IMG/VR virus record: IMGVR_UViG_3300009566_000045
Location: 1 to 41,592 of that record
Origin: a virus
Lineage: Duplodnaviria; Caudoviricetes
Direction: 5' to 3' (one strand)
Length of the DNA: 41,592 nucleotides
Positions 2,326 through 27,430 of this stretch are shown piece after piece. A program made the translations under genes and the position numbers. Numbering within the stretch: the first letter of the stretch is position 1; the number at the start of each line of letters is the position of its first letter. The notes under the pieces were generated by a model that saw nothing but the letters and a program-made list of their open reading frames with translations, was not told the DNA's origin and did no database searches.

Positions 2326-2568
2326 CTATTTCTCTTTCCTCTGGCATTTCAATCGCATTCCATCACCAACAAGGTGAAAAGGTTTGTCAATAACACACAA
2401 CACATTTTCTCTTAGAGACACTTCCTGAATCTTGTGGGTAGATGTACCATGAACTACAATCACTCTACCGATATCTCTTGCTTGAGCGATGACTTTTTCG
2501 GCGGCAAGAGCGTCTCCATGATCACGAATTACTCTTTTTGCTAACTTTCTTAGCCTTTCTCTTTCCAT
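2326..2568 (-). CDS. Small hypothetical protein (80 aa) overlapping the end of the Dcd-fold gene
   Basis: GAGG RBS before the ATG of MERERLRKLAKRVIRDHG...; no recognisable family. Confidence 0.35.
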   Translation of the reverse strand: MERERLRKLAKRVIRDHGDALAAEKVIAQARDIGRVIVVHGTSTHKIQEVSLRENVLCVIDKPFHLVGDGMRLKCQRKEK

Positions 2569-3454
2569 TTGATTGCCTCTTCCCCTCGCTCTCAATAATT
2601 CCTTCCTTTTGGAGTTGTTCGCATGCTCGAATGACTGTTGAGTAATCAAGTTGAAGAGTATCCGCTATGTCACTATAATAAAGGATGCCATGTTTTCTAA
2701 AAAGAGAAACAATTTCATCCATTGCCTGCTGAAGACTGATTTGTCGAGCTTCTATAGTTATAGGTTTGTCCGCTGGCCTCGCAGATTCAGCAATTTGCTG
2801 AGCAAGTTGAGATAGAGCCTGAGTCTGCATTCGCATTTCATTCATGAAATCTTCAAACTTAGTTGCTAAACCTCCCCACTGCCTCACGTGCTGAGACAAT
2901 TCTCCAAACTGGTTTTGCATTTGTGAAAGATTCAATCCCTCCAATCTAACCATGTCTTCCAGTATCTCAGGGCTTATATCTTGCCTATGTTGATAGGGCC
3001 CCTCATAAACTTTTTCTGGAACTACTTCTAACTGATGGAATTCAATTGAAAGAAAGGTTTCCTTGTATGATACAATATGAGATGCTGGCGTGAGATTCAG
3101 TAAAGACACAAACAATTTACCGTCAAATCCGGGATCTACTTGCGGGCCCGTTGAAGCAAGAAGTCCTCGACGAGCAAATCCTGATTTCAACCCAAATCGC
3201 CCAATCATGTCTGATGGCAAAAGAAGAGATTCATATGTCATCAACACAGATGTCCCGTATGGAGGAATTCTATGCCATCCACCATTCCTTGAGACATCGA
3301 CGGGCTTATCCGGTGTGGGTGATGATGGCGAATAAATAAGAGGACCGATCCTGAGGTCATAGCTGGCAGGCTGAAGGCATGTCTCATCGAAATTCACGAT
3401 GCCAAGGCGGCCATCCTTGACCCGTGCACGTATTTGATGATCTACTAGGACCAT
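2522..3454 (-). CDS. Trimeric dCTP deaminase/dUTPase-fold domain fused to a helical linker and a C-terminal winged HTH
   Basis: LQPASYDLRIG, GLKSGFARRGL and QVDPGFDGKL motifs; C-terminal YYSDIADTLQLDYSTVIRACEQLQKEGIIE fits a wHTH; AAAGGAGG RBS. Confidence 0.8.
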   Translation of the reverse strand: MVLVDHQIRARVKDGRLGIVNFDETCLQPASYDLRIGPLIYSPSSPTPDKPVDVSRNGGWHRIPPYGTSVLMTYESLLLPSDMIGRFGLKSGFARRGLLASTGPQVDPGFDGKLFVSLLNLTPASHIVSYKETFLSIEFHQLEVVPEKVYEGPYQHRQDISPEILEDMVRLEGLNLSQMQNQFGELSQHVRQWGGLATKFEDFMNEMRMQTQALSQLAQQIAESARPADKPITIEARQISLQQAMDEIVSLFRKHGILYYSDIADTLQLDYSTVIRACEQLQKEGIIESEGKRQSNGKRKAKKVSKKSNS

Positions 3455-3528
3455 TTTAGGCCTCCTTTCAGAACAATCAAGCGGCTCAATTGATATTGAT
3501 TCCCCTCTTCATTTTGCAACGTCTCTAA

Positions 3529-4197
3529 TTACGGGATGTAATTACATTTGGACAATTCCTTGCGTTCACAATCATCATCTGTACAATTAGACGGACCGAT
3601 ACCAAGGCTTTGGCCACCATACTTATCAAACCGAACGACTCTGCTCATTCTAGTGATTCTGTGTTTATCAAGTTCAAAACCATCAGTATATTCAGCTTCC
3701 CATACAAGAAACACATCCGTTTCCATTTTTCTAGCTGACTCGATTATTCCCAAAGGGATTGCGCCCGCCTGTAACTGAAGTGCCTGTTTTGGCCCAATAA
3801 CCTTCGGAGCTTCTGTTATTGACCATCTTACTAGCCCAAAGGGGTCTGAAACTGTGTTCAGTTTTCTAGAGATATAAGCGTGCCGTATAAGAACATTCCT
3901 AGCGGGCATATTCCCGGCATTATGCACAGTTAACCCAATACCCAAGTTGATTGGGTTGTGAGAAGGATATAGAAACAAATTGGGATCACCAAAATATATA
4001 AAGGCCCTATCTCGCAGGCGCGAGGTTTGATCTGTCTTCCAAAGAATCCACCCCTGAAAACAACCAACTATTACAAGAAAGAAGGTAAAAGCGGCCAATA
4101 GCACATTTGCGGTGGAGGGATCATGCCACCACACGCAGTCGCAAGGTCGATCATCTTTTTTTCGAGTATCATTCGAGGCATCTTTATTATTCGTCAT
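3529..4197 (-). CDS. Hypothetical single-TM membrane protein (AT-rich cargo)
   Basis: Hydrophobic VLLAAFTFFLVIVGCFQGWILW followed by a beta-rich soluble domain. Confidence 0.65.
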   Translation of the reverse strand: MTNNKDASNDTRKKDDRPCDCVWWHDPSTANVLLAAFTFFLVIVGCFQGWILWKTDQTSRLRDRAFIYFGDPNLFLYPSHNPINLGIGLTVHNAGNMPARNVLIRHAYISRKLNTVSDPFGLVRWSITEAPKVIGPKQALQLQAGAIPLGIIESARKMETDVFLVWEAEYTDGFELDKHRITRMSRVVRFDKYGGQSLGIGPSNCTDDDCERKELSKCNYIP

Positions 4198-4344
4198 AAG
4201 AACCGGAAGGTATTAATCTAATTCTATCTACAACTTCTCGTTCAAATTCTTGGAAATCTGTTCACTGCCCTTCCCATTAATTGATACATAGTAAAAACGT
4301 CGGCTGAGATATTTCTTTAACCACTTAGGTGATTCGACAGACTA

Positions 4345-5340
4345 TCACTTCTTGGGCAAAACAGCCTTTATGATCTCAAATACTTTTATGTCTGATTCAC
4401 CAGATTGTGATGGTGCATCGATGTATCCAGTCGATACATTACTAAAGACTGATTTTGCTGCTTCATGTACAATAGAATCTCTAATGCCAGAATCTTCAGT
4501 TGCTGCAGAAAAAGCATTTAAAGTTTGAATGCTTAATGCTCGATGACGATTTATGGTTGCCTGATGCATTAACGCTTTATAGATCTTGCCACACCAGACA
4601 GTGGTCGTCACTAGAACGACAAGAATGAAAAATTTCGATCCTATAGTATGATAGAATGCCTTATCTTGGAGACCAATTGGAGGAAAGATCAACATCAGCG
4701 AAGCTACAATTATGCTTAACATTACAAAGAAGGTCGTCACTTTAAGCCATCCATATGCCACTTCCTTAAGTGCTTCACTTTCATTCTTGAAATCTTCAGT
4801 AAATACTGCGGCACCTGCCGAAGCAGATGCTTCACGTGCCGCTTTTATTATGTCCTGAATTTCCTTTTCCTTGTTTGAAATCTCCTGTTTGGTCGTTAAA
4901 AGTAATTCATGAGAATCTCTCACTGCTTCCGTTAAACTTTCAATATTTTTCGCCACATCACCTTTTTGATAAGCTAAAAAAGGAATCCATGCCGCTGCTT
5001 GAGTATAAAGAGAATCTGCCCGACTCTTAATTTCATTAATAAAAGTGTCCCGTTGGTTTGCCGGGTTTTCTCTTTCGATTGTGAATTGTACGATGCGGCC
5101 GAATAATCCATTTACATTATTGATTTCGGTCTTGATTGAATTCATGGCAGCCTGCGGTAAGACTTCGAAAGGCAACACTTTTAAGTACTCAATTATACTG
5201 AATATTCTATTGTAGTCGTGACGTGCAGCTTCAAGTGTAATCGAGCCCCATTCACTTTTGTGAATTAATGCTTCCTTATCAAAGATTAACAGGGCGTCAA
5301 TTTTCTCTTTGAGTTCGATGTAAGCGGGGTTTTCGGACAT
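4345..5340 (-). CDS. Coiled-coil protein with two TM helices (AT-rich cargo)
   Basis: Long helical N-terminus; TMs WLKVTTFFVMLSIIVASLMLIF and FFILVVLVTTTVWC; GGAG RBS. Confidence 0.75.
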   Translation of the reverse strand: MSENPAYIELKEKIDALLIFDKEALIHKSEWGSITLEAARHDYNRIFSIIEYLKVLPFEVLPQAAMNSIKTEINNVNGLFGRIVQFTIERENPANQRDTFINEIKSRADSLYTQAAAWIPFLAYQKGDVAKNIESLTEAVRDSHELLLTTKQEISNKEKEIQDIIKAAREASASAGAAVFTEDFKNESEALKEVAYGWLKVTTFFVMLSIIVASLMLIFPPIGLQDKAFYHTIGSKFFILVVLVTTTVWCGKIYKALMHQATINRHRALSIQTLNAFSAATEDSGIRDSIVHEAAKSVFSNVSTGYIDAPSQSGESDIKVFEIIKAVLPKK

Positions 5341-5410: not shown

Positions 5411-6106
5411 TTATCTCTCCAAGTCCCTCCCATACCAGATCACTTTTCCATTGACGCGGACTTGGTCGATGGGTGCCTCGATCGGCTCGTATTGTTTGTT
5501 GTCGCTGATGATGCGGAGGTGACCCTCAGGGAAAAGGATCTGGACGCGCTTGATCATGATCTCGTGGTTGATGGAGATCGCATAAATGCCACCCTGGGGA
5601 GCGATGGCGGTCTTGTTGTGATCCACCAGGATCAGGTCGCCAGAGAGTAGCGTGGGCTCCATACTGTCGCCCTGAACCTTGATCAGAGACATGTTCTCCG
5701 GCTTTCCCTTTCGTTTTATCCAATCCTTCCGGAAGGCAAGGATGAGATCCACTTCGTCGTCCGGAGATAGGCCGCCGCCAGCGCTGATCTTGCCCCGGAC
5801 TTGGCGGATCAATACGAAGTCATTCGGTGGGAAACCCGGTGCCACGACTTTGTCACTCATCAATGGAAATGGCTGCCCCTCGCCAGTGAGCAGCCATTCA
5901 AGTGTACAGCCGTAGAAACCAACAATCTTCTTTGCGTTCTCAGAATTCGGCTTATTACGACTATATTCAATATTCTGGTACGTGCTGTATTTGATCCCTA
6001 AGGCCTTAGCAGCCTCTTGCTGGTTGAAACCACGCTCTTTCCGAAGCCATATTACCCGCTCCGAGAGCTTCTTAAACACGCCTTCGCTGTTATTTTTCTC
6101 GTCCAT
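5411..6106 (-). CDS. CI-like repressor, XRE HTH + S24 autopeptidase
   Basis: HTH (QQEAAKALGIKYSTYQNIE), A-G cleavage site (ISAGGG), catalytic Ser (GDSMEP) and Lys (IKR). Start placed at the ATG at 6106 after a GGAG RBS rather than at 6163. Confidence 0.92.
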   Translation of the reverse strand: MDEKNNSEGVFKKLSERVIWLRKERGFNQQEAAKALGIKYSTYQNIEYSRNKPNSENAKKIVGFYGCTLEWLLTGEGQPFPLMSDKVVAPGFPPNDFVLIRQVRGKISAGGGLSPDDEVDLILAFRKDWIKRKGKPENMSLIKVQGDSMEPTLLSGDLILVDHNKTAIAPQGGIYAISINHEIMIKRVQILFPEGHLRIISDNKQYEPIEAPIDQVRVNGKVIWYGRDLER

Positions 6107-12982: not shown

Positions 12983-13807
12983 CTAAATTGTACATTTTAC
13001 CAGACGCATCACGATGTTATAAGCAGGCTTATAGATCTCATTGTGTTGGCTGTTTGGAGTGATAGAGCCGTGAAATAGCGCATTGCGGAGGCAGTAGATT
13101 ACGTCGACTAACGCCCCAAATAACTTTACCGGATCATTGATAAATACAGTGTTGCCAATTTTCAGCGTGTTAGGATAGCCCGGTTGTGCCAGTACCGAGA
13201 CTATCTTGCGCGGTGCTACTGCGTCAAACATCGCTAGCAAGGTGGCTCGATGGTCTACTCTGAGTGTCTGGAAGCATGGTGCATCTTGGAGGTTCTGCTT
13301 ATCGTAAGCGGATAAAGTCAAGGCAAACGCAGCGGTCGTTTTGGTAGCACTTATTTCCAGTGTTACTTGTGGTTTTGCTGGGTGATCACGCCTGACCTGA
13401 AAGTTCCGGTTCCATTTGTTTCTCTGCTCTTCTTTATTGAGATTTGCACCTATGTCGACGGTTTCAAAAGATATCCGACCACGTCGGCCCTCTATCACAC
13501 AACTCTCCAGTAACCGGTGTATCTCTTCAATCTGTGAGCGAAACTGCTGAGCATCCGGGCTGCCATCCTGCCATCCAACTTGTGTGCCGGGAGCCTGAGG
13601 CAGGCCCTTGGAAAGCATTGGCAGAATGCGGTTATAGACCACATTGCTTCCTGCCTTGACCTTATCCATAAGTTCGCGGTCGGTCAGGTCTCCGAAAGTA
13701 TCTGTCATCCATGCGTTAAAGGGAATCCAAGCTTTGATGAATTGACTGAACCAGTCAATCTCGGCTACGTCGCGCCAACGTCTCAGGTTGTCTTGCAGTC
13801 CCGGCAT
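12983..13807 (-). CDS. HEPN-like protein (putative RNase effector)
   Basis: N-terminal FIKAWIPFNAW helix and C-terminal RNALFH (Rx4H) motif; starts 2 nt after the hsdS stop. Confidence 0.65.
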   Translation of the reverse strand: MPGLQDNLRRWRDVAEIDWFSQFIKAWIPFNAWMTDTFGDLTDRELMDKVKAGSNVVYNRILPMLSKGLPQAPGTQVGWQDGSPDAQQFRSQIEEIHRLLESCVIEGRRGRISFETVDIGANLNKEEQRNKWNRNFQVRRDHPAKPQVTLEISATKTTAAFALTLSAYDKQNLQDAPCFQTLRVDHRATLLAMFDAVAPRKIVSVLAQPGYPNTLKIGNTVFINDPVKLFGALVDVIYCLRNALFHGSITPNSQHNEIYKPAYNIVMRLVKCTI

Positions 13808-13809
13808 GG

Positions 13810-15258
13810 TTAAATGTCCTCCAGATACTTGAATGCGGCAGCTTCACTGTCTTCTATGGCGATCTCGACAGCTCGCTTGGCGCGGGCAATCAGATTAAAG
13901 GCTTGGCCTCTGGCCTGCTTTGCGACATCTAGTGCTATCTTGATTTGGCACTGCTGTTCCATTGAAATCAAAGGTATATTGAAACTGTTTAGATCGTTCT
14001 GCGATATGCTATAGAAAGCAACACCATGTGCCCATTGTTCAGCTTGATAATTGCCAGCCAGGCTATTGAAGAACATTGCAAGATACTCTGGGAGAAGCTT
14101 TGCTTCCCATTCGGGATTCCGGCGAATAAGCATAATTTCACTGCTGATAATTACATGTTCTTCTCCCGACCTAACAGGGGCTGCATTGCCGAAGCTGCCT
14201 TTCCGTGTGAAGAGTACATCCCCTTCTCTAAGCTTGATGTCTTTTTTTATATCATCAGGCCGGAGTAGAACGCGTGCCGCTGAATCGAGATTGATCCGAC
14301 ATTTTTTAATGTCACCTACGCGGATATAGGGTGTTCCCTCATCATAGAAATCCCGCACATCAAACCCGTTTTTGACTGGTAGAATAATTTCTGATAGCTT
14401 TACTAAATTAAGGCCAAAGTCTTTCATGGCTTGCAACAACGCGTCATATTTAGGATTAAAATGTTCTGCATCTAGACGTCCTGCTGCGATTACTTCTTTG
14501 ATGCCGCGTTGATAGGTCAAATGTTCAGGTTGTACCCAGTTAGTGAGGCCCACTTTGCTTAGGAGGATAAGTTCTGCGTTAGAGAAACTTCGTCGACTCT
14601 CGACAAGAGCCAAATGGGCATTACGGACAGCTGACTCGACGCGCGATTGAAAATGCAAACCAAAATCAGGCACTTTTAATTGTCTCAAATCTGACAGGTT
14701 CAGTCCAAGTTGAACTGTTCCCCGAGCATTACGCAAAAGAAGTCTCTGCCCAATTGATGAGTTCAAGTAAGCAACGAGAAACCATGGATTTTGCTTGGGA
14801 TGGCGGATTACAGTGCTCTTACAGCTAAAAATTGACGGCACATTCTCTTCTAAAATAATACATGAATTTCCAAGAGTGCCGACAACCGATACCAGCACAT
14901 CATTTGCTTTCAAAGCATGTGCTAACAACCGATCATAATCACGTTTAGGAATATATACATTGTCTGAATCTTCCAAAAACACGTTCTTTACGTCTTTGCC
15001 TCTTATGTATCGATAGCCAGATTCCTCTTCATAGTTCTCTACAATAAACTCTGAACCAAAGGGGCCAGCGACAAATTGGCAGGATTCTCCAAGGGCTGAG
15101 TGTGGCATCGAGCCAAGCTTTGCTTCCAAGGCAATGAGGTGAGGGTGGAAGAACTCCGCATCGCATCGCTCAGCAGCCAACACTTTTGATAGGGCAACTT
15201 CTGATACATTCAGCCCCTCCAACAGACGCTTATAACGCGCGTCATTGAAGGGGCTCAT
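13810..15258 (-). CDS. Restriction-modification specificity subunit (HsdS-like, two TRDs)
   Basis: Two repeats starting R.DAE.F.P, each with GD(V/I)L...GS/T.G and (P)..L..(Y/F)LNS..G..Q motifs. Confidence 0.9.
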   Translation of the reverse strand: MSPFNDARYKRLLEGLNVSEVALSKVLAAERCDAEFFHPHLIALEAKLGSMPHSALGESCQFVAGPFGSEFIVENYEEESGYRYIRGKDVKNVFLEDSDNVYIPKRDYDRLLAHALKANDVLVSVVGTLGNSCIILEENVPSIFSCKSTVIRHPKQNPWFLVAYLNSSIGQRLLLRNARGTVQLGLNLSDLRQLKVPDFGLHFQSRVESAVRNAHLALVESRRSFSNAELILLSKVGLTNWVQPEHLTYQRGIKEVIAAGRLDAEHFNPKYDALLQAMKDFGLNLVKLSEIILPVKNGFDVRDFYDEGTPYIRVGDIKKCRINLDSAARVLLRPDDIKKDIKLREGDVLFTRKGSFGNAAPVRSGEEHVIISSEIMLIRRNPEWEAKLLPEYLAMFFNSLAGNYQAEQWAHGVAFYSISQNDLNSFNIPLISMEQQCQIKIALDVAKQARGQAFNLIARAKRAVEIAIEDSEAAAFKYLEDI

Positions 15259-17495
15259 AGAAAAAAACTTAATCCCTCCTTCTTTGCGAATTCACTGAAA
15301 GCCTCGGCGATACCATCCTGGGTAAGGCCCTCGTGGTTGAATAGGTCGTGCTGAACCACCCAGTGACCGTGGCTATCACGAAGATGCTTGCGGTAGCGCT
15401 CTGCATGGAACAACCATTCAACTTGGTGACTATTCTTCCCGCGTAACTGCTGTGGCTTGAGACCATTGACGACATATTGATCACCTTTAAAAATACCTTG
15501 TTTGCCATTCGGAAATATCACTCTATATACTGACGCATTTTCGGGCTCGCCGTATTGAGCAAAGAATTCATCGTAAGGAAGCTCCTGCCATCCGTGGTCG
15601 TTACTCGATGGGCGCCAATCGACGAATCGTACCATCTCTTTGGTGGCGATCTTTTTTTCTCCGCTACTATCTTTTGCCGGTAGCTTTTGTGTGGCAAAGA
15701 ATATGTTGTAATCTTCAATCCGTGGACACAGCGGCCCGGCTGTTGGGCTATCATTCCATTTCTGTACGAATAACACGCTGGTTTTAGTGCCTGTATGGGG
15801 TTTAAAGGTGTTGCCATCCAATCCGACTACCGCGAGAATGCGACAGTGCCCCATGATGAAATCGCGCACCCGCTTGTCACTCGCATTGTTGAAACGCCCT
15901 TGTGGTAAAACAACGGCCATACGTCCACCAGGTTTTAGAAAATCTATGTTACGTTCTATGAACAACAGGTCACGTCCAACTTTGCTCTCGAACTTCCCAT
16001 TTTCTTTATGTGCTAATTCGTAAGGTGCAAGAAGATCCGTCTGCTTGATTTCGCCAGCAAAAGGCGGATTGGCCATCAGTACATCAAACATGAATTCACG
16101 ATAATCCTTCTTGGTCTTTATCAACTTTTTGAGTTTCTTCCAGCCCTCGAAGTATGTTTCCTGCCATTGATCATCCTTAATTGTTTCATCCCATTTCTTA
16201 TAGTCGAGAGTGTTGATATGAAGGACATTGGATTGTCCATCTCCGGCTATAAGATTCAAGCAGCGTGCTACGCGAACTGATTTTTCGTCGAAATCGATAG
16301 CAAAGATCTTTTCACGCACATAATCGTAACAGCGTGTTGGCTTCTTCTCCATTGTGAAGAGGTGAGAGGCTGGAATGCCCTCATCTTGCAGGATATCGTG
16401 CCATACTTTGAAGAAGGTGTGAACGGTAAAGCCCGCACTGCCAGCCGCGGTGTCGATGACGTATTCATTTTCTTGAGGATTCATCATCTTAACGCACATA
16501 TCGATGACCCAACGAGGTGTGAAATATTGACCTTTCTCACCTTTGGATGTTTTATTTATCAAATATTCAAAAGCATCGTCGATGACATCAAGGTTTGAAT
16601 TGAAGAGTTTAAATTGCTCTAGTGAACCGATACAGACTTGAAGGTGGTCGGGTGTTAGCTTAATTCGGTCATCATCAGGAAATACACCACTCCATTTCTT
16701 GCGAGCGTCGGCGAACATATCGTTAATACGCTCGCGCAACTCGGCGGCCGTGTTCGTGTTTCGAAAGCACAAGTGCTTATAACGACCCTGATAGACGGAA
16801 AGCTCGTCATAGAGTTTGGTAAAGATTAGCTTGAATACCTCCTCGAAGACATCGACGCCCGCGTTGGCAAGCACTTCATCTTCCATGTCTTGGATGAGTT
16901 GCTTCAAGCTACGGGCAGTGATACCTTCAGCTTCGCGGTTCTTCTCAAAGGCAATCAGAGTATCAATTGTCCAAGGTTGATCAACGATTTCCTCGATCGT
17001 TTGACTTGTAGCTGGTAGGTCAGGGATCTCGATGAAGTAATTAGGATTCTTACGATGCCAAACAACCACTTGATCGCCGTTGGACCAAAGCGCGAGTGGA
17101 GCACCGGTAGCATGGGTATAAGACTTCAGTTGATCCTTCCCGTCTTTCTGCTTGGTTTTCTTGACCTCGATTATCACATAAGGGACTGTGGGACGATCCT
17201 TGTCATATATAACAATGTCGGCTCGCTTAGAGGTGTCACGTCCGAAAGTGATGGGGTATTCGACGGCCAGGCGTGCAATTGGATACTTATAGTGATGGAT
17301 CAAGCGGTATATCCAGAATTGACGTATAATTTCCTCTCCTTTTGCCTGCACTTCCGTTTTGCGAACAAGGCATCGAATGTAAGGTTTGCCTTTACGCTCA
17401 AGAAGAAGTGATTCGATGTGATGGATTGCGGCATCGGAGAACAGTTCTGCGCCATGCTCGGTCACGCTGACATTAAAGACGTCAGAAAGTATCAT
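15255..17495 (-). CDS. Fused restriction endonuclease-N6-adenine methyltransferase (HsdR_N-type nuclease + HsdM-like; type IIB/IIG-like)
   Basis: RADIV...IIEVKK..QL.SY nuclease motif; GQYFTPR, DTAAGSAGF (motif I) and ANPPF (motif IV); no helicase subunit nearby. Confidence 0.92.
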   Translation of the reverse strand: MILSDVFNVSVTEHGAELFSDAAIHHIESLLLERKGKPYIRCLVRKTEVQAKGEEIIRQFWIYRLIHHYKYPIARLAVEYPITFGRDTSKRADIVIYDKDRPTVPYVIIEVKKTKQKDGKDQLKSYTHATGAPLALWSNGDQVVVWHRKNPNYFIEIPDLPATSQTIEEIVDQPWTIDTLIAFEKNREAEGITARSLKQLIQDMEDEVLANAGVDVFEEVFKLIFTKLYDELSVYQGRYKHLCFRNTNTAAELRERINDMFADARKKWSGVFPDDDRIKLTPDHLQVCIGSLEQFKLFNSNLDVIDDAFEYLINKTSKGEKGQYFTPRWVIDMCVKMMNPQENEYVIDTAAGSAGFTVHTFFKVWHDILQDEGIPASHLFTMEKKPTRCYDYVREKIFAIDFDEKSVRVARCLNLIAGDGQSNVLHINTLDYKKWDETIKDDQWQETYFEGWKKLKKLIKTKKDYREFMFDVLMANPPFAGEIKQTDLLAPYELAHKENGKFESKVGRDLLFIERNIDFLKPGGRMAVVLPQGRFNNASDKRVRDFIMGHCRILAVVGLDGNTFKPHTGTKTSVLFVQKWNDSPTAGPLCPRIEDYNIFFATQKLPAKDSSGEKKIATKEMVRFVDWRPSSNDHGWQELPYDEFFAQYGEPENASVYRVIFPNGKQGIFKGDQYVVNGLKPQQLRGKNSHQVEWLFHAERYRKHLRDSHGHWVVQHDLFNHEGLTQDGIAEAFSEFAKKEGLSFFL

Positions 17496-22377: not shown

Positions 22378-23889
22378 ATGGCCGAAGAGACAAAACGTCC
22401 GCCTGTCCTGATCGACGAAGTCGCCACCATCGAGAAAGACATCGACATCTTCGCCGGGTGGCTGAAGCGCCTGGAGAACCCGGACCCGGTTCTCCGGACC
22501 GAGGCAGCCGGGAAGGGCCTCAAGCTCTATGACGAGGTCGACCGGGACGCCCATGCGGGGAGCGTGCTGCAGCAGCGGATCCTGGCCGTGGTGGGGAAGG
22601 AATGGGAAGTCATTCCGGCGAAGTCCGCCCGGAAGCAGGGCCGCCCGGCTGCTACGTCCCAGGAACAGATTGTCGCCGATTTCGTTTCCGAGGTTCTGGA
22701 GAATTGCAACTTCGACCAGGCCCGCCAGGAGATCCTCAAGGCCGTCCTTTACGGTTTCTACGGTCTCGAAATCCTCTGGGGCGCGAAGGATGCGTCGATC
22801 GACATCCGCAGGTTCCTGGGCAAGCACCCCCGGCGCTTTGTCTTCACGCCCGAGCGGGAGCCGCGCCTCCTCACCCCGCAGAACATGATCGAGGGGGAGC
22901 CTCTCCCGGACCGGAAGTTCGTCTTCCTGACCTGGGGCGATTCGGACAACCCCTATGGCCGGGGCCTGGGACAGAAGCTCTGGTGGCCCGTCTGGTTCAA
23001 GAAAAACGGCGTCAAGTTCTGGCTCGTCTTCCTGGAGAAGTTCGGCATGCCCACGGTGAAGGGCAAGTACCCGGCGGGAACAGGCCCGGAACAGAAGAAA
23101 GCCCTCCTGGAGGCCATCGAGGCCATCCAGAGCGACACCGGGCTCACCATGCCCGACACGATGGACGTGGAGTTCCTGGAGGCCTCCCGGGCCGGCACGG
23201 TCACCCACGAGCAGCTCTGCAACTACATGGACCGCCAGATCTCGAAGGCCGTCCTGGGGCAGACGGCCTCGACGGAGGGGACCCCCGGGAAGCTGGGCAA
23301 CGAGGAATCCCAGGAGAACGTGCGCCAGGAGCTGATCGAAGCCGATGCGGACCTTCTCGACTCCTGCCTGAACGAGACCCTGGTCCGCTGGATCGTGGAC
23401 TTCAACTTCCCCGGGGCGGCGGCCTACCCGAAGCTCAAGACCTATGCCGCGGCCAAGCCGGACCTGAAGCAGCAGTCCGAGATCGACAAGACCCTCGTCG
23501 TGGACATCGGGCTCCCCGTGGGGACCGCCTACTTCTACGAGACCTACGGGATCCCGGCGCCCCAGGAGGGGGAGGAGACCGTTGGGAGCACAAAGAAAGC
23601 AACAGCCAAGAAGGAAGAAAAGGCCGCCTTCGCAGAGAAGGCGGGACGGTTGTTTCCCGACCAGGAAGCCCTCGACCGGGCCGTCGAGGGGCTGCCGCCG
23701 GCGGCCCTCCAGGCCCAGGCGGAAGGGATCCTGAAGCCCCTGGTGGCGATGATCCAGGCGGGGAACACCTACGACGAGATCATGGAGATCCTCGAAGAGG
23801 CCTATCCGGGGCTGAACGATCAAGCCCTGGAGGACATGCTGGCCCGGGCGATGTTTGTGGCCGAGACCTGGGGGTGCCTGAATGCCTGA
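22378..23889 (+). CDS. Portal protein (DUF935, Mu gp29-like)
   Basis: NPYGRGL, FLEKFGMP..GKYP, ISKAVLGQT. Confidence 0.95.
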   Translation: MAEETKRPPVLIDEVATIEKDIDIFAGWLKRLENPDPVLRTEAAGKGLKLYDEVDRDAHAGSVLQQRILAVVGKEWEVIPAKSARKQGRPAATSQEQIVADFVSEVLENCNFDQARQEILKAVLYGFYGLEILWGAKDASIDIRRFLGKHPRRFVFTPEREPRLLTPQNMIEGEPLPDRKFVFLTWGDSDNPYGRGLGQKLWWPVWFKKNGVKFWLVFLEKFGMPTVKGKYPAGTGPEQKKALLEAIEAIQSDTGLTMPDTMDVEFLEASRAGTVTHEQLCNYMDRQISKAVLGQTASTEGTPGKLGNEESQENVRQELIEADADLLDSCLNETLVRWIVDFNFPGAAAYPKLKTYAAAKPDLKQQSEIDKTLVVDIGLPVGTAYFYETYGIPAPQEGEETVGSTKKATAKKEEKAAFAEKAGRLFPDQEALDRAVEGLPPAALQAQAEGILKPLVAMIQAGNTYDEIMEILEEAYPGLNDQALEDMLARAMFVAETWGCLNA

Positions 23890-26149
23890 CGTGGACCTGG
23901 GATACGCCATTGGGCTGAAACCGGAGGCGGCCATCCGCTACTTCCAGGAGAAGGGCTACGCCTTTACCTGGGACTGGCAGGAGATGTGGCAGGACGCCCA
24001 TGCCAAGGCCTTCACGGTGGCCAAGGTGACCCAGCTCGACATCCTGGAGGACATCCGCGGGGCCGTCCAGAAGGCCCTCGACGAGGGGACAACCCTCCGG
24101 GACTTCCAGAAGAACCTGACGCCCATCCTCCAGGCCAAGGGCTGGTGGGGCAAGCAGGAACTCATGGGAGCGACTGGTGCCGTCCAGGAAGTGCAACTCG
24201 GTTCTCCCCGGCGGCTGAAGACCATCTACCGGACGAACCTCCAGACGTCCTTCATGGCGGGCCGCTGGAAGGAGCAGGTGGAGAACGCCGACGACCGGCC
24301 CTACCTCCAGTACGTGGCCGTCATGGACCGCCGCACGCGGCCGTCCCATGCCAGGCTCCACGGCCGGGTCTACCGGTACGACGACCCCTTCTGGAAGGCC
24401 TTCTACCCACCGAACGGTTGGGGCTGCCGGTGCCGCACCCGGGCTCTCAGCGAGGCGAACGTCCAGAGCCGGGGGCTCACGGTCCACAAGACCGATCCGG
24501 CCCAGATCCGATGGGAGGACCGGGTCATCGACCGGGCCGGCGAGACAAGGCCGGTAGCGGTCTATCATGATCCCTTCCTGGGCCGGTTCGAGACAGATCC
24601 CGGCTGGAGCTATAACCCCGGCGAGGCCAAGTGGAACCTGGATGATCTGCTGAAGCAGCGCCTGGCGCGCCGGAAGGCAACAATGCGCAAGCCGCGGGCA
24701 CCCCGCAAACCGGCCCCCGTGGGTTTCGACCCCGACGATCTCCGGGCGATCCCGGACAGCCGGAAGGGCAGCATGCCCGGGGGGCTCTATGAGGACAGCC
24801 GCGGGCAGCGGTACTACGTGAAGTTCTACGAGGACCCGAACCACGCCCGGGCGGAATTTGCGGCCAACGCGATCTACCGGAAGCTGGGCGTCGAGGTCCC
24901 GGACCTTCGGCTGGCCGAGATGGCTGCCCCCGGGGGCGAGCGGAAACTAGCCGTGATCAGCACCTGGCGGGACGACCTGAAACGGATCGGTGCGGCGGAG
25001 ATGACCCAGCGGCCGGAGGAACTGGCGAAGGTCTTCCAGGTCTCCGTCCTGGTCAAGAACTGGGACGTCGTGGGCCTCGAGTACGACAACCTTCTCCTAG
25101 CCAAGGACGGCCGCCTGGTCCTGATCGACAGCGGCGGGAGCTTCCGCTTCCGCGCCCAAGGCGGCGCCAAGGCTTTCGAGGACATCCCGCTGGAGGTGAA
25201 GAGCTTTCGGGATTCCGTCATCAATCCACAGTCGGCGAGGGTCTTTAACGAGGTCTTTGGGCAGGACGCCTGGCTGGAGAGCCGGGGAGCCGAGCCGCTC
25301 CTGGGGCTGGAAAAGGCGGCGGTCCGGAAGATCTTCCGGGAAGCGGGATTCGATGCCGCGGAGGTCGAGAGCCTGACGGAGACCCTCTGGAAGCGGCGCC
25401 AGTGGCTGATCGACCGCTACGACCTGGAGGGCAGGCTCACGCCCCTGGGGTTCGGCAAGCACCTGGAGGAGTTCAAGAAGTGGGGGACGGCAGCCTGGAC
25501 GCCGAACGAAGTCGGCGGGCTGGTCAACGGCGCGATCGACAGCGGTTTCGCCTCCGAGGTCGAGGCCCTGGTCGGGAAGTTCGAAGCCTACGTCATGAAT
25601 ACGATCCACCCGTGGGGACGCGGGGTGCTGCGGGCTTTGTTTTCCGAATGGTCGAGCAGCTCGTCGTCGAGCGGTGGGGCGACCATCAAGCTCTGGACGG
25701 AATCCCGCTTCGGAAAGCTCACGAAGTACCACTCGGGTCGGACGTCCCGGGGAGAGGTCGTCACTGCCCTGGATGACGGGATCCGGCGATCCCTGGAGAA
25801 GGCGAAGATCCCGCAGGAGACGATCTTCTCGCTCTTGGATGCCGAGTACGAGTTCCAGCAGTACCTGATGCGCAGGCTGCACGGGTACGAGGAGATCCCG
25901 GCAATCCGCTTCCTGTCTCGTTCCGAGTTCAGCAGAAATTTCAAGCGGGGAGCCTTCTCGGGAAACTCTGTCCAGTCCGTGACCGTCAAAATGGACGGCT
26001 TCGGGGGACAGCGGTGTGTCCGGATGTCCCTCCGGGTCGAGGACACGGTGAAGACCTACTACCAGGGGAGAAAGTACATGCACTACGGCAGAAGTGAGTC
26101 GGAATACGTCGTCATCGGGAGGGCAGTCCGTGCGATCGTTATTCGATAA
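23882..26149 (+). CDS. MuF (gp30) head morphogenesis protein with C-terminal kinase-like and ADP-ribosyltransferase-like extensions
   Basis: MuF core: AFTVAK, RL.TIYRTN, D.RTRP.H, PPNGWGCRC (about aa 1-250). About 500 extra aa carry GSMPGG/YYVK/AE/NWD..DN/IDSG and AIRF/QSVT/ESEYVV. Confidence 0.9.
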   Translation: MPDVDLGYAIGLKPEAAIRYFQEKGYAFTWDWQEMWQDAHAKAFTVAKVTQLDILEDIRGAVQKALDEGTTLRDFQKNLTPILQAKGWWGKQELMGATGAVQEVQLGSPRRLKTIYRTNLQTSFMAGRWKEQVENADDRPYLQYVAVMDRRTRPSHARLHGRVYRYDDPFWKAFYPPNGWGCRCRTRALSEANVQSRGLTVHKTDPAQIRWEDRVIDRAGETRPVAVYHDPFLGRFETDPGWSYNPGEAKWNLDDLLKQRLARRKATMRKPRAPRKPAPVGFDPDDLRAIPDSRKGSMPGGLYEDSRGQRYYVKFYEDPNHARAEFAANAIYRKLGVEVPDLRLAEMAAPGGERKLAVISTWRDDLKRIGAAEMTQRPEELAKVFQVSVLVKNWDVVGLEYDNLLLAKDGRLVLIDSGGSFRFRAQGGAKAFEDIPLEVKSFRDSVINPQSARVFNEVFGQDAWLESRGAEPLLGLEKAAVRKIFREAGFDAAEVESLTETLWKRRQWLIDRYDLEGRLTPLGFGKHLEEFKKWGTAAWTPNEVGGLVNGAIDSGFASEVEALVGKFEAYVMNTIHPWGRGVLRALFSEWSSSSSSSGGATIKLWTESRFGKLTKYHSGRTSRGEVVTALDDGIRRSLEKAKIPQETIFSLLDAEYEFQQYLMRRLHGYEEIPAIRFLSRSEFSRNFKRGAFSGNSVQSVTVKMDGFGGQRCVRMSLRVEDTVKTYYQGRKYMHYGRSESEYVVIGRAVRAIVIR

Positions 26150-26441
26150 AGCCGCGATCCGCCTTCCACTCTTCGACTTCAGCCTGGACTTCGGGCGTCA
26201 GGGGAAAGGCCTCCATGAGGAGATCGTGAAGGGCGGGACAGAGCCCCCGAATGTCGCCCTCGTAGTCGGCGGCGCTGACCTGGTTCAGGCGCAGCAAGGT
26301 GGAGACTTCGCGGCCTCGTTCAAGAAAGTCTTCCCAGGTTCGAAGCCGGTCGATCCAGGTGTAGTCCCATCCCGAATCGGGAAGGGGCAGGAGGGCGTTA
26401 TACCGCCCTCGGATCTCGTTCCAGTTCCGCGCTTCAGTCAT
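26139..26441 (-). CDS. 100-aa acidic helical protein, candidate immunity protein
   Basis: AAGGAG RBS; converges on and overlaps the muF 3' end by 11 nt. Confidence 0.65.
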   Translation of the reverse strand: MTEARNWNEIRGRYNALLPLPDSGWDYTWIDRLRTWEDFLERGREVSTLLRLNQVSAADYEGDIRGLCPALHDLLMEAFPLTPEVQAEVEEWKADRGFIE

Positions 26442-26453
26442 GGCAAGTCTCCT

Positions 26454-26759
26454 TCACTTCTGGTGGCGGTAAAGTGTGAGCCATACGGCGCTGCAGGCTG
26501 TGTGATAGGTCCCCTCGCGTACCGAATCCTTGAAGTTGTCGTAGTCAATGGCCTCCGCTTCCCGGTGAAGTACCTCGATGACCTGCGAACGCGGCACTTC
26601 TGCCCGGTAGAGGTAGTCGCGATTCGGAGTAACAAGCACACGAGCATCGGCAAAGAGAAATTGGATGTGCCCCGGGAATCGGGAGCGGACGACAAGCGTA
26701 GCGGGGTCGTTCTCCTTCTGGACGACGGACAGAAATCCTCTGCTCGTAAAGATCCACAT
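26454..26759 (-). CDS. 101-aa hypothetical protein (MWIFTSRGFLSVV...DYLYRA...IDYDNFKDSV)
   Basis: GGGAGG RBS; TGATG coupling to the upstream RHH gene. Confidence 0.75.
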   Translation of the reverse strand: MWIFTSRGFLSVVQKENDPATLVVRSRFPGHIQFLFADARVLVTPNRDYLYRAEVPRSQVIEVLHREAEAIDYDNFKDSVREGTYHTACSAVWLTLYRHQK

Positions 26760-26929
26760 CACACACCTCCCTTCGATTTGCGCGGTCTTGGCCGGACGTC
26801 CCGGTTGTCCTGGCGGATGAGCATCCGCACATACGCAGAAATGCTGAGACCAAGGCTCTCGGCCTTCTCCTCCGCCATGCGCTTCGTCTCCGGATCCATC
26901 CGGACGGCCAGAAGCAGCGTCTTCTTCAT
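26759..26929 (-). CDS. 56-aa ribbon-helix-helix DNA-binding protein
   Basis: Manual translation MKKTLLLAVRMDPETKRMAEEKAESLGLSISAYVRMLIRQ...: a beta-strand plus two helices with G.S.S.YVR; too short for the ORF track. Confidence 0.75.
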   Translation of the reverse strand: MKKTLLLAVRMDPETKRMAEEKAESLGLSISAYVRMLIRQDNRDVRPRPRKSKGGV

Positions 26930-26936
26930 GGCTCAA

Positions 26937-26970
26937 ATGGTAAGCGTTTGTATGTTGTTTGTCAATACAA
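26937..26970 (-). promoter_or_regulatory. Sigma70 promoter with overlapping inverted-repeat operator; likely leaderless transcript
   Basis: TTGACA (26965-26960)-N17-TACCAT (26942-26937), ATG 7 nt further on; inverted repeat TTGTAT-N11-ATACAA (26948-26970). Confidence 0.7.
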
Positions 26971-26986
26971 AAAGGGAGGCCGCCGG

Positions 26987-27430
26987 ATGATCCGGATCAC
27001 CCTCCAGGACCTGGGCGCCCAGGACATGGTGGCCCGTCTGGCCAAGCGGGCGGGGGACTTGTCGCCCGTCATGCGGCGGATCGCCGGGATCCTCCACGAC
27101 GCCGTGGAGGAGAATTTCGAGCGCCAGGGGCGGCCCGCCTGGGTTCCCCTGAAGCCCCGGACGATCCGGCAGCGGGCCAAGTTCGGCTACTGGCCCGGGA
27201 AGATCCTGCAACGACGCGGCGAGCTGGCCGCCTCCATCAGCCGGAAGTACGACGCCCGGAGCGCCGCGGTGGGAACCAACCGGATCTATGCGGCCATTCA
27301 CCAGTTCGGAGGCCAGGCCGGCCGGGGGCGGAAGGTGACGATCCCCGCGCGGCCCTTCCTCGCCGTCACGGACCAGGACCTGGGCGAGATCGCGACGGCC
27401 ATCCAGAACTATCTGACGAAAGGGGTGTGA
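26987..27430 (+). CDS. Mu gpG-like virion morphogenesis protein
   Basis: W.PLKP.T, L...G.L..SI, VGTN..YAAIHQFGG, IPARPFL. Confidence 0.92.
   Translation: MIRITLQDLGAQDMVARLAKRAGDLSPVMRRIAGILHDAVEENFERQGRPAWVPLKPRTIRQRAKFGYWPGKILQRRGELAASISRKYDARSAAVGTNRIYAAIHQFGGQAGRGRKVTIPARPFLAVTDQDLGEIATAIQNYLTKGV

Follow-up and report, generated by a model that had tools for sequence, protein, structure and literature searches.

The 41,592-nucleotide stretch analyzed here (IMG/VR record IMGVR_UViG_3300009566_000045, positions 1 to 41,592; hereafter the window) constitutes a viral record of 41.6 kb and belongs to a Mu-like transposable phage. Its head/packaging module contains, 3′ of the terminase and portal genes, an open reading frame (ORF; 23882..26149, plus strand) that encodes a 755-amino-acid (aa) fusion of a MuF head domain, an atypical kinase, and a DraT-like ADP-ribosyltransferase (ART). 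The Mu-type portal gene (22378..23889, plus strand; Pfam Portal_Mu, E 1e-103) lies directly upstream and overlaps the start of the fusion gene. Between the fusion gene and the tail-completion gene on its other flank (26948-27430) are three minus-strand genes, a conserved operon for a ribbon-helix-helix (RHH) protein and two small proteins that we call ImmK and ImmA. Further Pfam matches in the window include an S24/helix-turn-helix (HTH) repressor, Mu transposase, an AAA transposition protein, GemA, Gam, gp27, terminase, and tail genes. The transposase, Gam, and repressor genes, together with the location of homologues in long host contigs, identify the phage as temperate. The closest relative of the fusion protein (85% over aa 280-755) is found in HGW-Deltaproteobacteria-19, another homologue carries the name of a Syntrophales bacterium, and prophage copies occur in two deltaproteobacterial metagenome-assembled genomes (MAGs), one Beggiatoa MAG, and one further genome of the same class as the first two.

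A first-pass annotation made from the letters alone had described this gene as a MuF protein with two enzymatic cargo domains, and the ORF, linker, and motifs that it quoted are all present. The MuF domain, of the Mu gpF/SPP1 gp7 type, extends from aa 1 to about 250 (23882..24631, plus strand), and is identified by Phage_Mu_F (PF04233; aa 57-186, E 9e-27, 94 bits against a cut-off of 29.6), PHROG 220 (aa 2-271, E 1e-99), and TIGR01641 (63 bits against a cut-off of 39.65). A basic, proline-rich linker follows (aa ~251-281; 24632..24724, plus strand), the length and sequence of which vary from one homologue to another. Of the 38 proteins found with aa 280-755, 19, the query included, have the MuF as well as the DRAT label in Pfam.

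The kinase domain (aa 282-518; 24725..25435, plus strand; K314, E325, D395, N403, and D416) is placed in the HipA/CtkA/PI3-PI4K group by its model, fold searches, and conservation, in agreement with the group proposed earlier from motif order. An AlphaFold model built from 37 sequences reached a pLDDT of 97 and a pTM of 0.93 and shows a kinase-like arrangement, with K314 in a strand, E325 in the next helix, and D416 just past a short strand. In a VIA structure search against 48,161 solved chains, the best match was CtkA of H. pylori (3akj; Z 16.9, root mean square deviation [rmsd] 3.1 Å, 203 residues aligned), and other matches were CotH (Z 14.5), PI4KII-alpha (14.2), MavQ (12.7), HipA (12.5), and HipT (11.2). 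Foldseek, which the first-pass annotation had suggested for both predicted structures, likewise ranked actin-fragmin kinase and CtkA at the top. The phage domain shares with these kinases the whole-domain fold (Z 16.9 to 11.2), the Lys-Glu pair, the catalytic Asp/Asn, and the metal-binding Asp, whereas identity is 11-16%, the signature motifs are its own, and no Pfam kinase family reaches its cut-off. HipA_C (PF07804) came closest, with matches in 8 of 37 members and a best E of 4e-4; at 17 bits for aa 282-518 against a cut-off of 30.5, the domain is not HipA family proper. Searching PDB sequences, whether with the full-length protein or with the kinase profile, returned nothing significant (CtkA, E 0.33). 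The setting also differs, with phage head proteins as carriers and ImmK as the partner in place of HipB/HipS.

Outside this fusion, the kinase domain occurs as a stand-alone protein or in large phage proteins with MuF, portal, NUDIX, or VIP2-type ART domains, such as that of locus L055, which joins a portal protein, the same kinase, and a VIP2-type ART. It was found in 20 of 50,697 phage records. Cultured phages of 86-129 kb are among its carriers, and the hosts of cultured carriers include Pseudomonas putida, with phages Dolphis and Jeremy, and enterobacteria. In Yersinia phage fHe-Yen8-01, the kinase-bearing protein is annotated as "particle associated" and the ImmK homologue is not. The kinase represents an unnamed family present in many phage head proteins, for which we found no description in the literature searched. 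HipA and CtkA act on proteins, and by analogy the substrate of the phage kinase would be a protein as well; the fold alone is compatible with a protein, a lipid, or a small molecule. The domain is repeatedly fused to NUDIX domains and ARTs (L036, L052, L059, L061, and Atlas clusters), and these fusions, together with the occurrence of the ImmK fold in a NUDIX-bearing cluster, hint at NAD+/ADP-ribose chemistry rather than simple protein phosphorylation.

The C-terminal R-S-E ART recognized in the first-pass annotation was confirmed, with changes to its extent and family. It occupies about 235 aa (aa 521-755; 25442..26149, plus strand; R676, S699, E739, and E741) rather than the last ~90 aa only, and the "cholera-toxin clade," correct at the level of class, missed the family, which is DraT. 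The C-terminal 235 aa match Pfam DRAT (PF07357) with 35.5 bits against a cut-off of 25, and hhalign against a profile of 16 cellular DraT proteins gave 99.3% (E 3e-20) over 190 colinear columns with the R-S-ExE motif kept. The same comparison with six VIP2-type domains from related phage proteins gave 0.3% (E 0.18), and Pfam found no match to ADPrib_exo_Tox (PF03496) at E 0.01, which together rule out the VIP2/Alt-type identity known from MuF proteins. DraT-family motifs are also present in the helical N-terminal half (W590-S594, K603-W605, L652-D653, and Q660). The ART model (pLDDT 93.5) places R676, S699, and E741 on strands, and its 19 best structural matches all have the ART fold. Because their Z scores are only 5.6 to 4.0, the assignment to DraT rests on sequence evidence; Foldseek returned nothing at E ≤0.001 (best, 6drh at E 0.009), and neither fold search returned a DraT entry. 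The R-S-ExE motif indicates arginine specificity (PMC3102197), and the ExE of the phage domain predicts arginine as its acceptor.

A profile of 13 phage ART domains yielded 72 matches among 1.84 billion representative proteins, in which the nearest non-phage relatives were DraT proteins. Among the 57 of 72 matches that were scanned, 22 lower-ranked ones scored 135-387 bits on DRAT; "cellular DraT" is assigned here by DRAT score and protein length, without reference to genomic context. A quick maximum-likelihood tree was computed for 68 domains, with seven near-duplicates and rows of <130 filled columns excluded. In it, the 20 full-score cellular DraT rows formed a single long branch (SH-aLRT 100) with the phage forms outside it. 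The tree has no outgroup and a support of 25 for its midpoint split, and it therefore does not indicate which way DraT passed between phages and cells. A tblastn search of the 50,697 phage records with the ART domain found nothing at E 0.01. Among the 32 best ART matches, those at E ≤1e-10, all 24 proteins of at least 350 aa have the kinase upstream (one weakly) and most also have MuF; the remaining 8 are 60-202 aa long. Remoter DraT-like domains outside the cellular branch (P0077, P0098, P0100, P0092, P0099, P0103, P0076, P0081, and P0096) occur on MuF proteins that have no kinase (P0077, P0098, and P0100), in long unannotated proteins, or as stand-alone forms.

The catalytic residues of both enzymes, whose conservation the first-pass annotation had put forward as a check, are invariant or nearly so across homologues at 22-63% identity. 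Counted over every stored protein that matches the domain profiles and is not gapped at the position concerned, K314 is conserved in 62/62, E325 in 62/62, D395 in 63/63, N403 in 63/63, and D416 in 64/64; the corresponding counts for the ART, in a set that includes cellular DraT, are 84/85 (R676), 86/88 (S699), 83/85 (E739), and 85/85 (E741). Across 19 aligned homologues of the fusion, G296, S297, P299, K314, E325, N393-W394-D395, D402-N403, D416, R676, E739, and E741 are invariant and S699 is conserved in at least 90%. In six close pairs, dN/dS was 0.05-0.15 for the kinase and 0.07-0.19 for the ART, and three more distant, partly saturated pairs reached values up to 0.34. The C-terminal enzymatic tip is exchanged between relatives, with DraT-type and VIP2-type tips on related MuF-kinase bodies: the MuF part of L022 is 55% identical to that of the window and its tip is a VIP2-type ART, and L001 has a MuF part only 33% identical and an ART that is 77% identical. 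Two further variants were seen. In L007/L008 (contigs shared with L014/L015), an in-frame TAG at the start of the kinase (~5998-6000) separates MuF (283 aa) from the kinase-DraT part, with ImmA, ImmK, and RHH retained, and would represent either a disarmed allele or a case of read-through. L012 (4642-7446) encodes a 934-aa kinase-DraT protein whose N-terminal 450 aa have no MuF match, apparently the same cargo on a different carrier domain.

The antisense operon was absent from the first-pass account. Its promoter-proximal gene encodes a 56-aa RHH DNA-binding protein (26759..26929, minus strand; NikA-like in Pfam, 33.6 bits against a cut-off of 27; conserved) with additional weak matches to RelB and RHH_9. 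Upstream lies a predicted sigma-70-type promoter (TTGACA-17-TACCAT; 26937..26965, minus strand; one site found against 0.2 expected), and all 11 of the 11 loci aligned have an identical -35 hexamer. A leaderless transcript is predicted because the RHH start codon lies 7 nucleotides (nt) after the -10 box. An inverted repeat that spans the spacer and the -10 box in most relatives, degenerate in the window, could be an RHH operator, and the RHH protein is likely an autoregulator of the operon. Among the three roles that the first-pass annotation offered for the virion-borne enzymes, namely host takeover, anti-defense, and competition, the operon favors the one involving toxin and immunity.

The product of the distal gene, ImmA, is an acidic protein of 100 aa (pI 4.5; 26139..26441, minus strand), whose gene converges on the MuF gene and overlaps the last 11 nt of it. 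ImmA is a conserved family under purifying selection (dN/dS 0.04-0.27) with AAGGAG as ribosome-binding site upstream of the gene, and its charge of -9.4 mirrors the +9.4 of the ART domain. When 123 loci were clustered at 70% into lineages and ImmA was sought within 300 nt downstream, 7 of the 8 kinase lineages with DraT had it beside the gene, against 0 of the 39 without DraT; at 90% clustering, the counts were 13/14 and 0/49. A scan for ImmA found 12 loci, 11 of them beside a DraT-like domain and one at a contig end. Given these associations, ImmA is likely the immunity protein for the DraT-like domain. Unrelated small ORFs occupy its position where the tip is divergent or of the VIP2 type (L027, 4748-5110; L022, 8085-8285; L035, 7985-8164; L037, 4716-5024), and those of L022, L027-L029, L035, and L037 are candidate alternative immunity proteins.

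ImmK (101 aa, beginning MWIFT; 26454..26759, minus strand) starts in overlap with the RHH stop, is preceded by GGAGG as ribosome-binding site, and is under purifying selection. As with ImmA, no convincing family was found in Pfam, PHROG, or NCBIfam. Of 65 distant loci fetched via ImmK alone, 35 have the kinase within 5 kb, or 26 of 49 when lineages are counted and two training loci are removed. A further 27 ImmK records lack a nearby kinase; 6 have one elsewhere, including 3 of the 3 whose completeness is 90% or more. Among the 50,697 phage records searched, ImmK occurs in 9 from cultured phages, and the kinase is present in every one of them. At kinase-less ImmK loci (76 of 117 listed ORFs scanned), the neighbors were mixed, with many replication genes and no other consistent partner. 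Stand-alone kinase genes lie directly 5′ of ImmK in L042 (4277-5314), L043 (5902-6998), and L060 (5983-6998), two-gene units that look like an undescribed kinase toxin-antitoxin pair in large phages; in L129, L132, and L141, two separate kinase-bearing genes stand in tandem 5′ of one ImmK gene.

The MuF polymorphic toxins already described offer the closest parallel (Jamet et al. 2017, PMC5576092; Apk2-IapK-Aph1, PMC12226406; and the EFV toxin cited there). Shared features are the N-terminal MuF1 domain, a gene placed right after the portal gene, a temperate phage, an enzymatic C-terminal extension, small downstream ORFs, and an exchangeable tip. By its sequence, the locus shows the genomic hallmarks of this class: a MuF domain, a head module, an exchanged tip, and a covarying small ORF. 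It departs from known members in having two tandem enzymes instead of one, an ART of the DraT type, and small genes arranged as an antisense operon with its own promoter and RHH gene. In the accessible tables of PMC5576092, the ART label found is ADPrib_exo_Tox, DRAT appears only as a typing error, and Table S5 lists four deltaproteobacterial MuF proteins of 1524-1529 aa with "Kinase," family unspecified, as a non-toxin domain. A second parallel is formed by T4 Alt, MuF- and portal-fused Alt/VIP2 ARTs, and polyvalent proteins (PMC5512222, PMC9503650), which share a head-associated R-S-E ART and several effector domains per chain. Fusions of MuF to ARTs have been reported in the Alt/VIP2 and N4 families (PMC9503650); the domain studied here does not resemble, at the profile level, the VIP2-type tips found on related MuF-kinase proteins. 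The kinase of polyvalent proteins, as published in 2017, is without the C-terminal subdomain (PMC5512222), whereas the phage kinase here has a full C-lobe.

DraT itself (dinitrogenase reductase ADP-ribosyltransferase, PF07357; Rhodospirillum rubrum DraT/DraG) switches off nitrogenase by modifying NifH at Arg101 under the control of PII. With it, the phage domain shares the colinear homology and triad noted above and the motifs W-x3-S, K-x-W-x-E-x-R-F-G, and L-D. It differs in being fused to a MuF-kinase virion protein, in missing about 50 N-terminal profile positions, and in falling outside the cellular clade. There is no adjacent draG; the downstream genes encode proteins of 100, 101, and 56 aa with no ADP_ribosyl_GH match, an unrelated 100-aa protein stands in DraG's place, and the hosts mostly lack a detected nifH. 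We conclude from these comparisons that the domain is a member of the DraT sequence family outside the DraT/DraG functional system. According to PMC8120803, DraT occurs only in several nitrogen fixers and is a toxin-antitoxin system that became domesticated. No DraT-like phage domain and no kinase of this type appears in the accessible parts of PMC5512222, PMC3482391, PMC7824862, or PMC9503643, and the literature searched, with subscription papers, figures, and some supplements out of reach, contained no virion-fused DraT-family domains, no report of this kinase family, and none of the two partner genes. As MuF toxins themselves are already known, what appears to be new is the virion-borne DraT-family clade.

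The interpretation that we favor, with modest confidence, is that the protein is a virion-injected double toxin, a HipA/CtkA-type kinase joined to a DraT-family ART, that inhibits the newly infected cell, while lysogens are shielded by the two proteins of the antisense operon. Capsids are reported to contain one to a few copies of a MuF protein such as SPP1 gp7, attached to the portal (as cited in PMC5576092 and PMC12226406), and by analogy the fusion would be made from the late head operon, packaged at the portal, and ejected into the cell with the phage DNA. Once inside, it would be toxic, with the kinase phosphorylating and the ART arginine-ADP-ribosylating host proteins so that a non-immune cell is inhibited in the first minutes; the target of the ART would be a common host protein rather than nitrogenase. 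Such inhibition might tip the choice between lysis and lysogeny or be directed against competitors, two roles that Jamet et al. put forward for MuF toxins as a class (PMC5576092). In the lysogen, acidic ImmA may bind the basic ART domain and ImmK may neutralize or serve the kinase, both being expressed independently of the repressor from the sigma-70 promoter and damped by the RHH protein. The lysogen would thereby be protected against sibling virions and against its own protein at induction.

Several observations weigh against this model. The immunity genes of Apk2 are co-oriented with the toxin gene (PMC12226406), whereas those proposed here lie on the opposite strand. Among solved ARTs, even the best match resembles the ART model weakly (Z 5.6, rmsd 4.2 Å, 146 residues aligned). 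A Fisher P value of 1e-7 for the link between ImmA and DraT overstates independence, because the ImmA profile derives largely from DraT-adjacent genes and the phages are related, and in the DraT lineage L027-L029 an unrelated small ORF takes ImmA's place. ImmK is not obligatory: of 20 kinase records without a nearby ImmK, 3 have it elsewhere, and none of the 3 that are at least 90% complete has it anywhere. The latter include the complete provirus L011/L021, which encodes the same MuF-kinase-DraT protein with intact kinase motifs. Eleven Gordonia phage records also have the kinase with no ImmK match. Furthermore, ImmK has 12 invariant columns in 22 rows, a conservation above that usual for immunity proteins, and its predicted fold occurs also with a NUDIX domain, its Atlas neighbors being unnamed. 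ImmK may thus be an enzyme or a ligand-binding partner. Prediction of a kinase-ImmK complex gave a score of 0.01 (mark, 0.32), which counts neither for nor against a partnership. Since the linkage from kinase to ImmK is weaker than that from ImmK to kinase, we rate ImmK below ImmA and consider its role as the immunity protein for the kinase an even proposition.

The main competing explanation, possible but in our estimation less probable than the double-toxin model, is a nontoxic takeover of the host in the manner of Alt, in which the injected enzymes modify a few specific host proteins of transcription, translation, or defense and aid infection without poisoning the cell. The small genes would then be timers, chaperones, or erasers instead of immunity genes, a role compatible with the existence of kinase genomes without ImmK. 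That the kinase is also found beside VIP2-type ART or NUDIX domains in large proteins of the head and portal, and in cultured phages of 86-129 kb, fits this account, as does the persistence of the kinase-ART tandem while the ART family is swapped; head-packaged ARTs have also been argued to be first-line tools of host hijacking (PMC9503650). Its difficulty is that ImmA changes along with the ART tip and that other small ORFs stand at VIP2-type tips, which is the pattern expected of cognate immunity, and that the conserved host-type promoter points to expression outside the late program.

Two further explanations invoke nitrogenase or its relatives. The broader one, which we regard as doubtful, is that phage virions bear a diverse clade of DraT-family toxins that was the source of the domesticated nitrogenase switch DraT, with a NifH-type P-loop target kept, and that the kinase and its partner constitute a new, widespread phage kinase-antitoxin pair. 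If so, a few injected molecules would stop nitrogen fixation in diazotrophs such as Beggiatoa, and a related ATPase would be hit in other hosts. The narrower one, which we consider unlikely, is that the domain retains the DraT substrate and shuts off NifH at Arg101 upon infection, sparing ATP and reductant for the phage. The identity of the nearest non-phage relatives as DraT proteins and the retained DraT-specific motifs outside the catalytic core speak for it, and the Beggiatoa host has nifH (439 bits) and DRAT only in the prophage copy, which is indeed the sole DRAT match in each of the three named host genomes. All three also encode a DraG-family hydrolase, but so do 7 of 14 control genomes. 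Against it stand the missing N-terminal profile positions and the long branch that parts the phage domain from cellular DraT, as well as the distribution of nifH, which was detected in one of four host genomes and, of the 41 genomes surrounding G001, the closest host, exceeded its cut-off in only 2; the host genomes are incomplete MAGs of unstated completeness, so that its absence from G001, G002, and G052 is not proven. Sampling of the host phylum turned up ImmA in 1 of 401 genomes, and within the host class the phage ART occurred in 3 of 339, too few positive genomes for nifH enrichment to be judged. On the counts from the four hosts and from the genomes around G001, nitrogenase was set aside as a general target and is probably not what the ART modifies.

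We hold it very improbable that the genes form a toxin-antitoxin, addiction, or abortive-infection unit that acts in the producing cell, with the MuF fusion incidental. The weak RelB-antitoxin likeness of the RHH protein and the existence of stand-alone kinase-ImmK pairs agree with such a unit, whereas every one of the 24 longer proteins among the best ART matches has the kinase upstream, mostly with MuF as well, and the toxin gene should be silent in the lysogen because it belongs to the late head operon and overlaps the portal gene. Catalytically dead decorations or chance motifs, to which the lack of a Pfam kinase family at cut-off and the weak structural Z of the ART might point, were rejected as scarcely credible on catalytic conservation and dN/dS, the kinase fold also being confident.

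Two other groups of genes in the window lie apart from the head module. A low-GC cassette (43-49%) in the Mu semi-essential region (13810-17495, with 12983-13807, all minus strand) codes for a restriction-methylase fusion of 746 aa (HSDR_N + N6_Mtase), a specificity subunit of 482 aa, and a 274-aa protein that Pfam does not recognize, and is probably a prophage-borne restriction system with an extra defense-like gene (12983-17495). To the left of the repressor, three low-GC genes (2522-5340, minus strand) encode a 310-aa chain combining a dCTP-deaminase-like domain and a C-terminal HTH, a 222-aa protein with a single hydrophobic stretch, and a 331-aa coiled-coil or membrane-looking protein; these are candidate lysogen-expressed accessory or defense genes.

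In sum, a phage-borne branch of DraT in a toxin context, accompanied by a candidate inhibitor, opens the question of where DraT came from and what it can modify to direct testing, and the phage domain may serve as a tractable structural surrogate for DraT, for which PMC8120803 reports no structure. The finding also bears on viral metagenomics, in which draT in a marine virome has been counted as an auxiliary gene without further analysis (PMC8940887): viral "draT" matches tallied as nitrogen-metabolism auxiliary genes may be virion toxins. The kinase can be examined in laboratory strains, since cultured phages that infect Pseudomonas putida and enterobacteria carry it together with its tightly linked partner of 101 aa. 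A cargo of two enzymes in a single chain, each with a partner gene, would extend the current model of MuF toxins.

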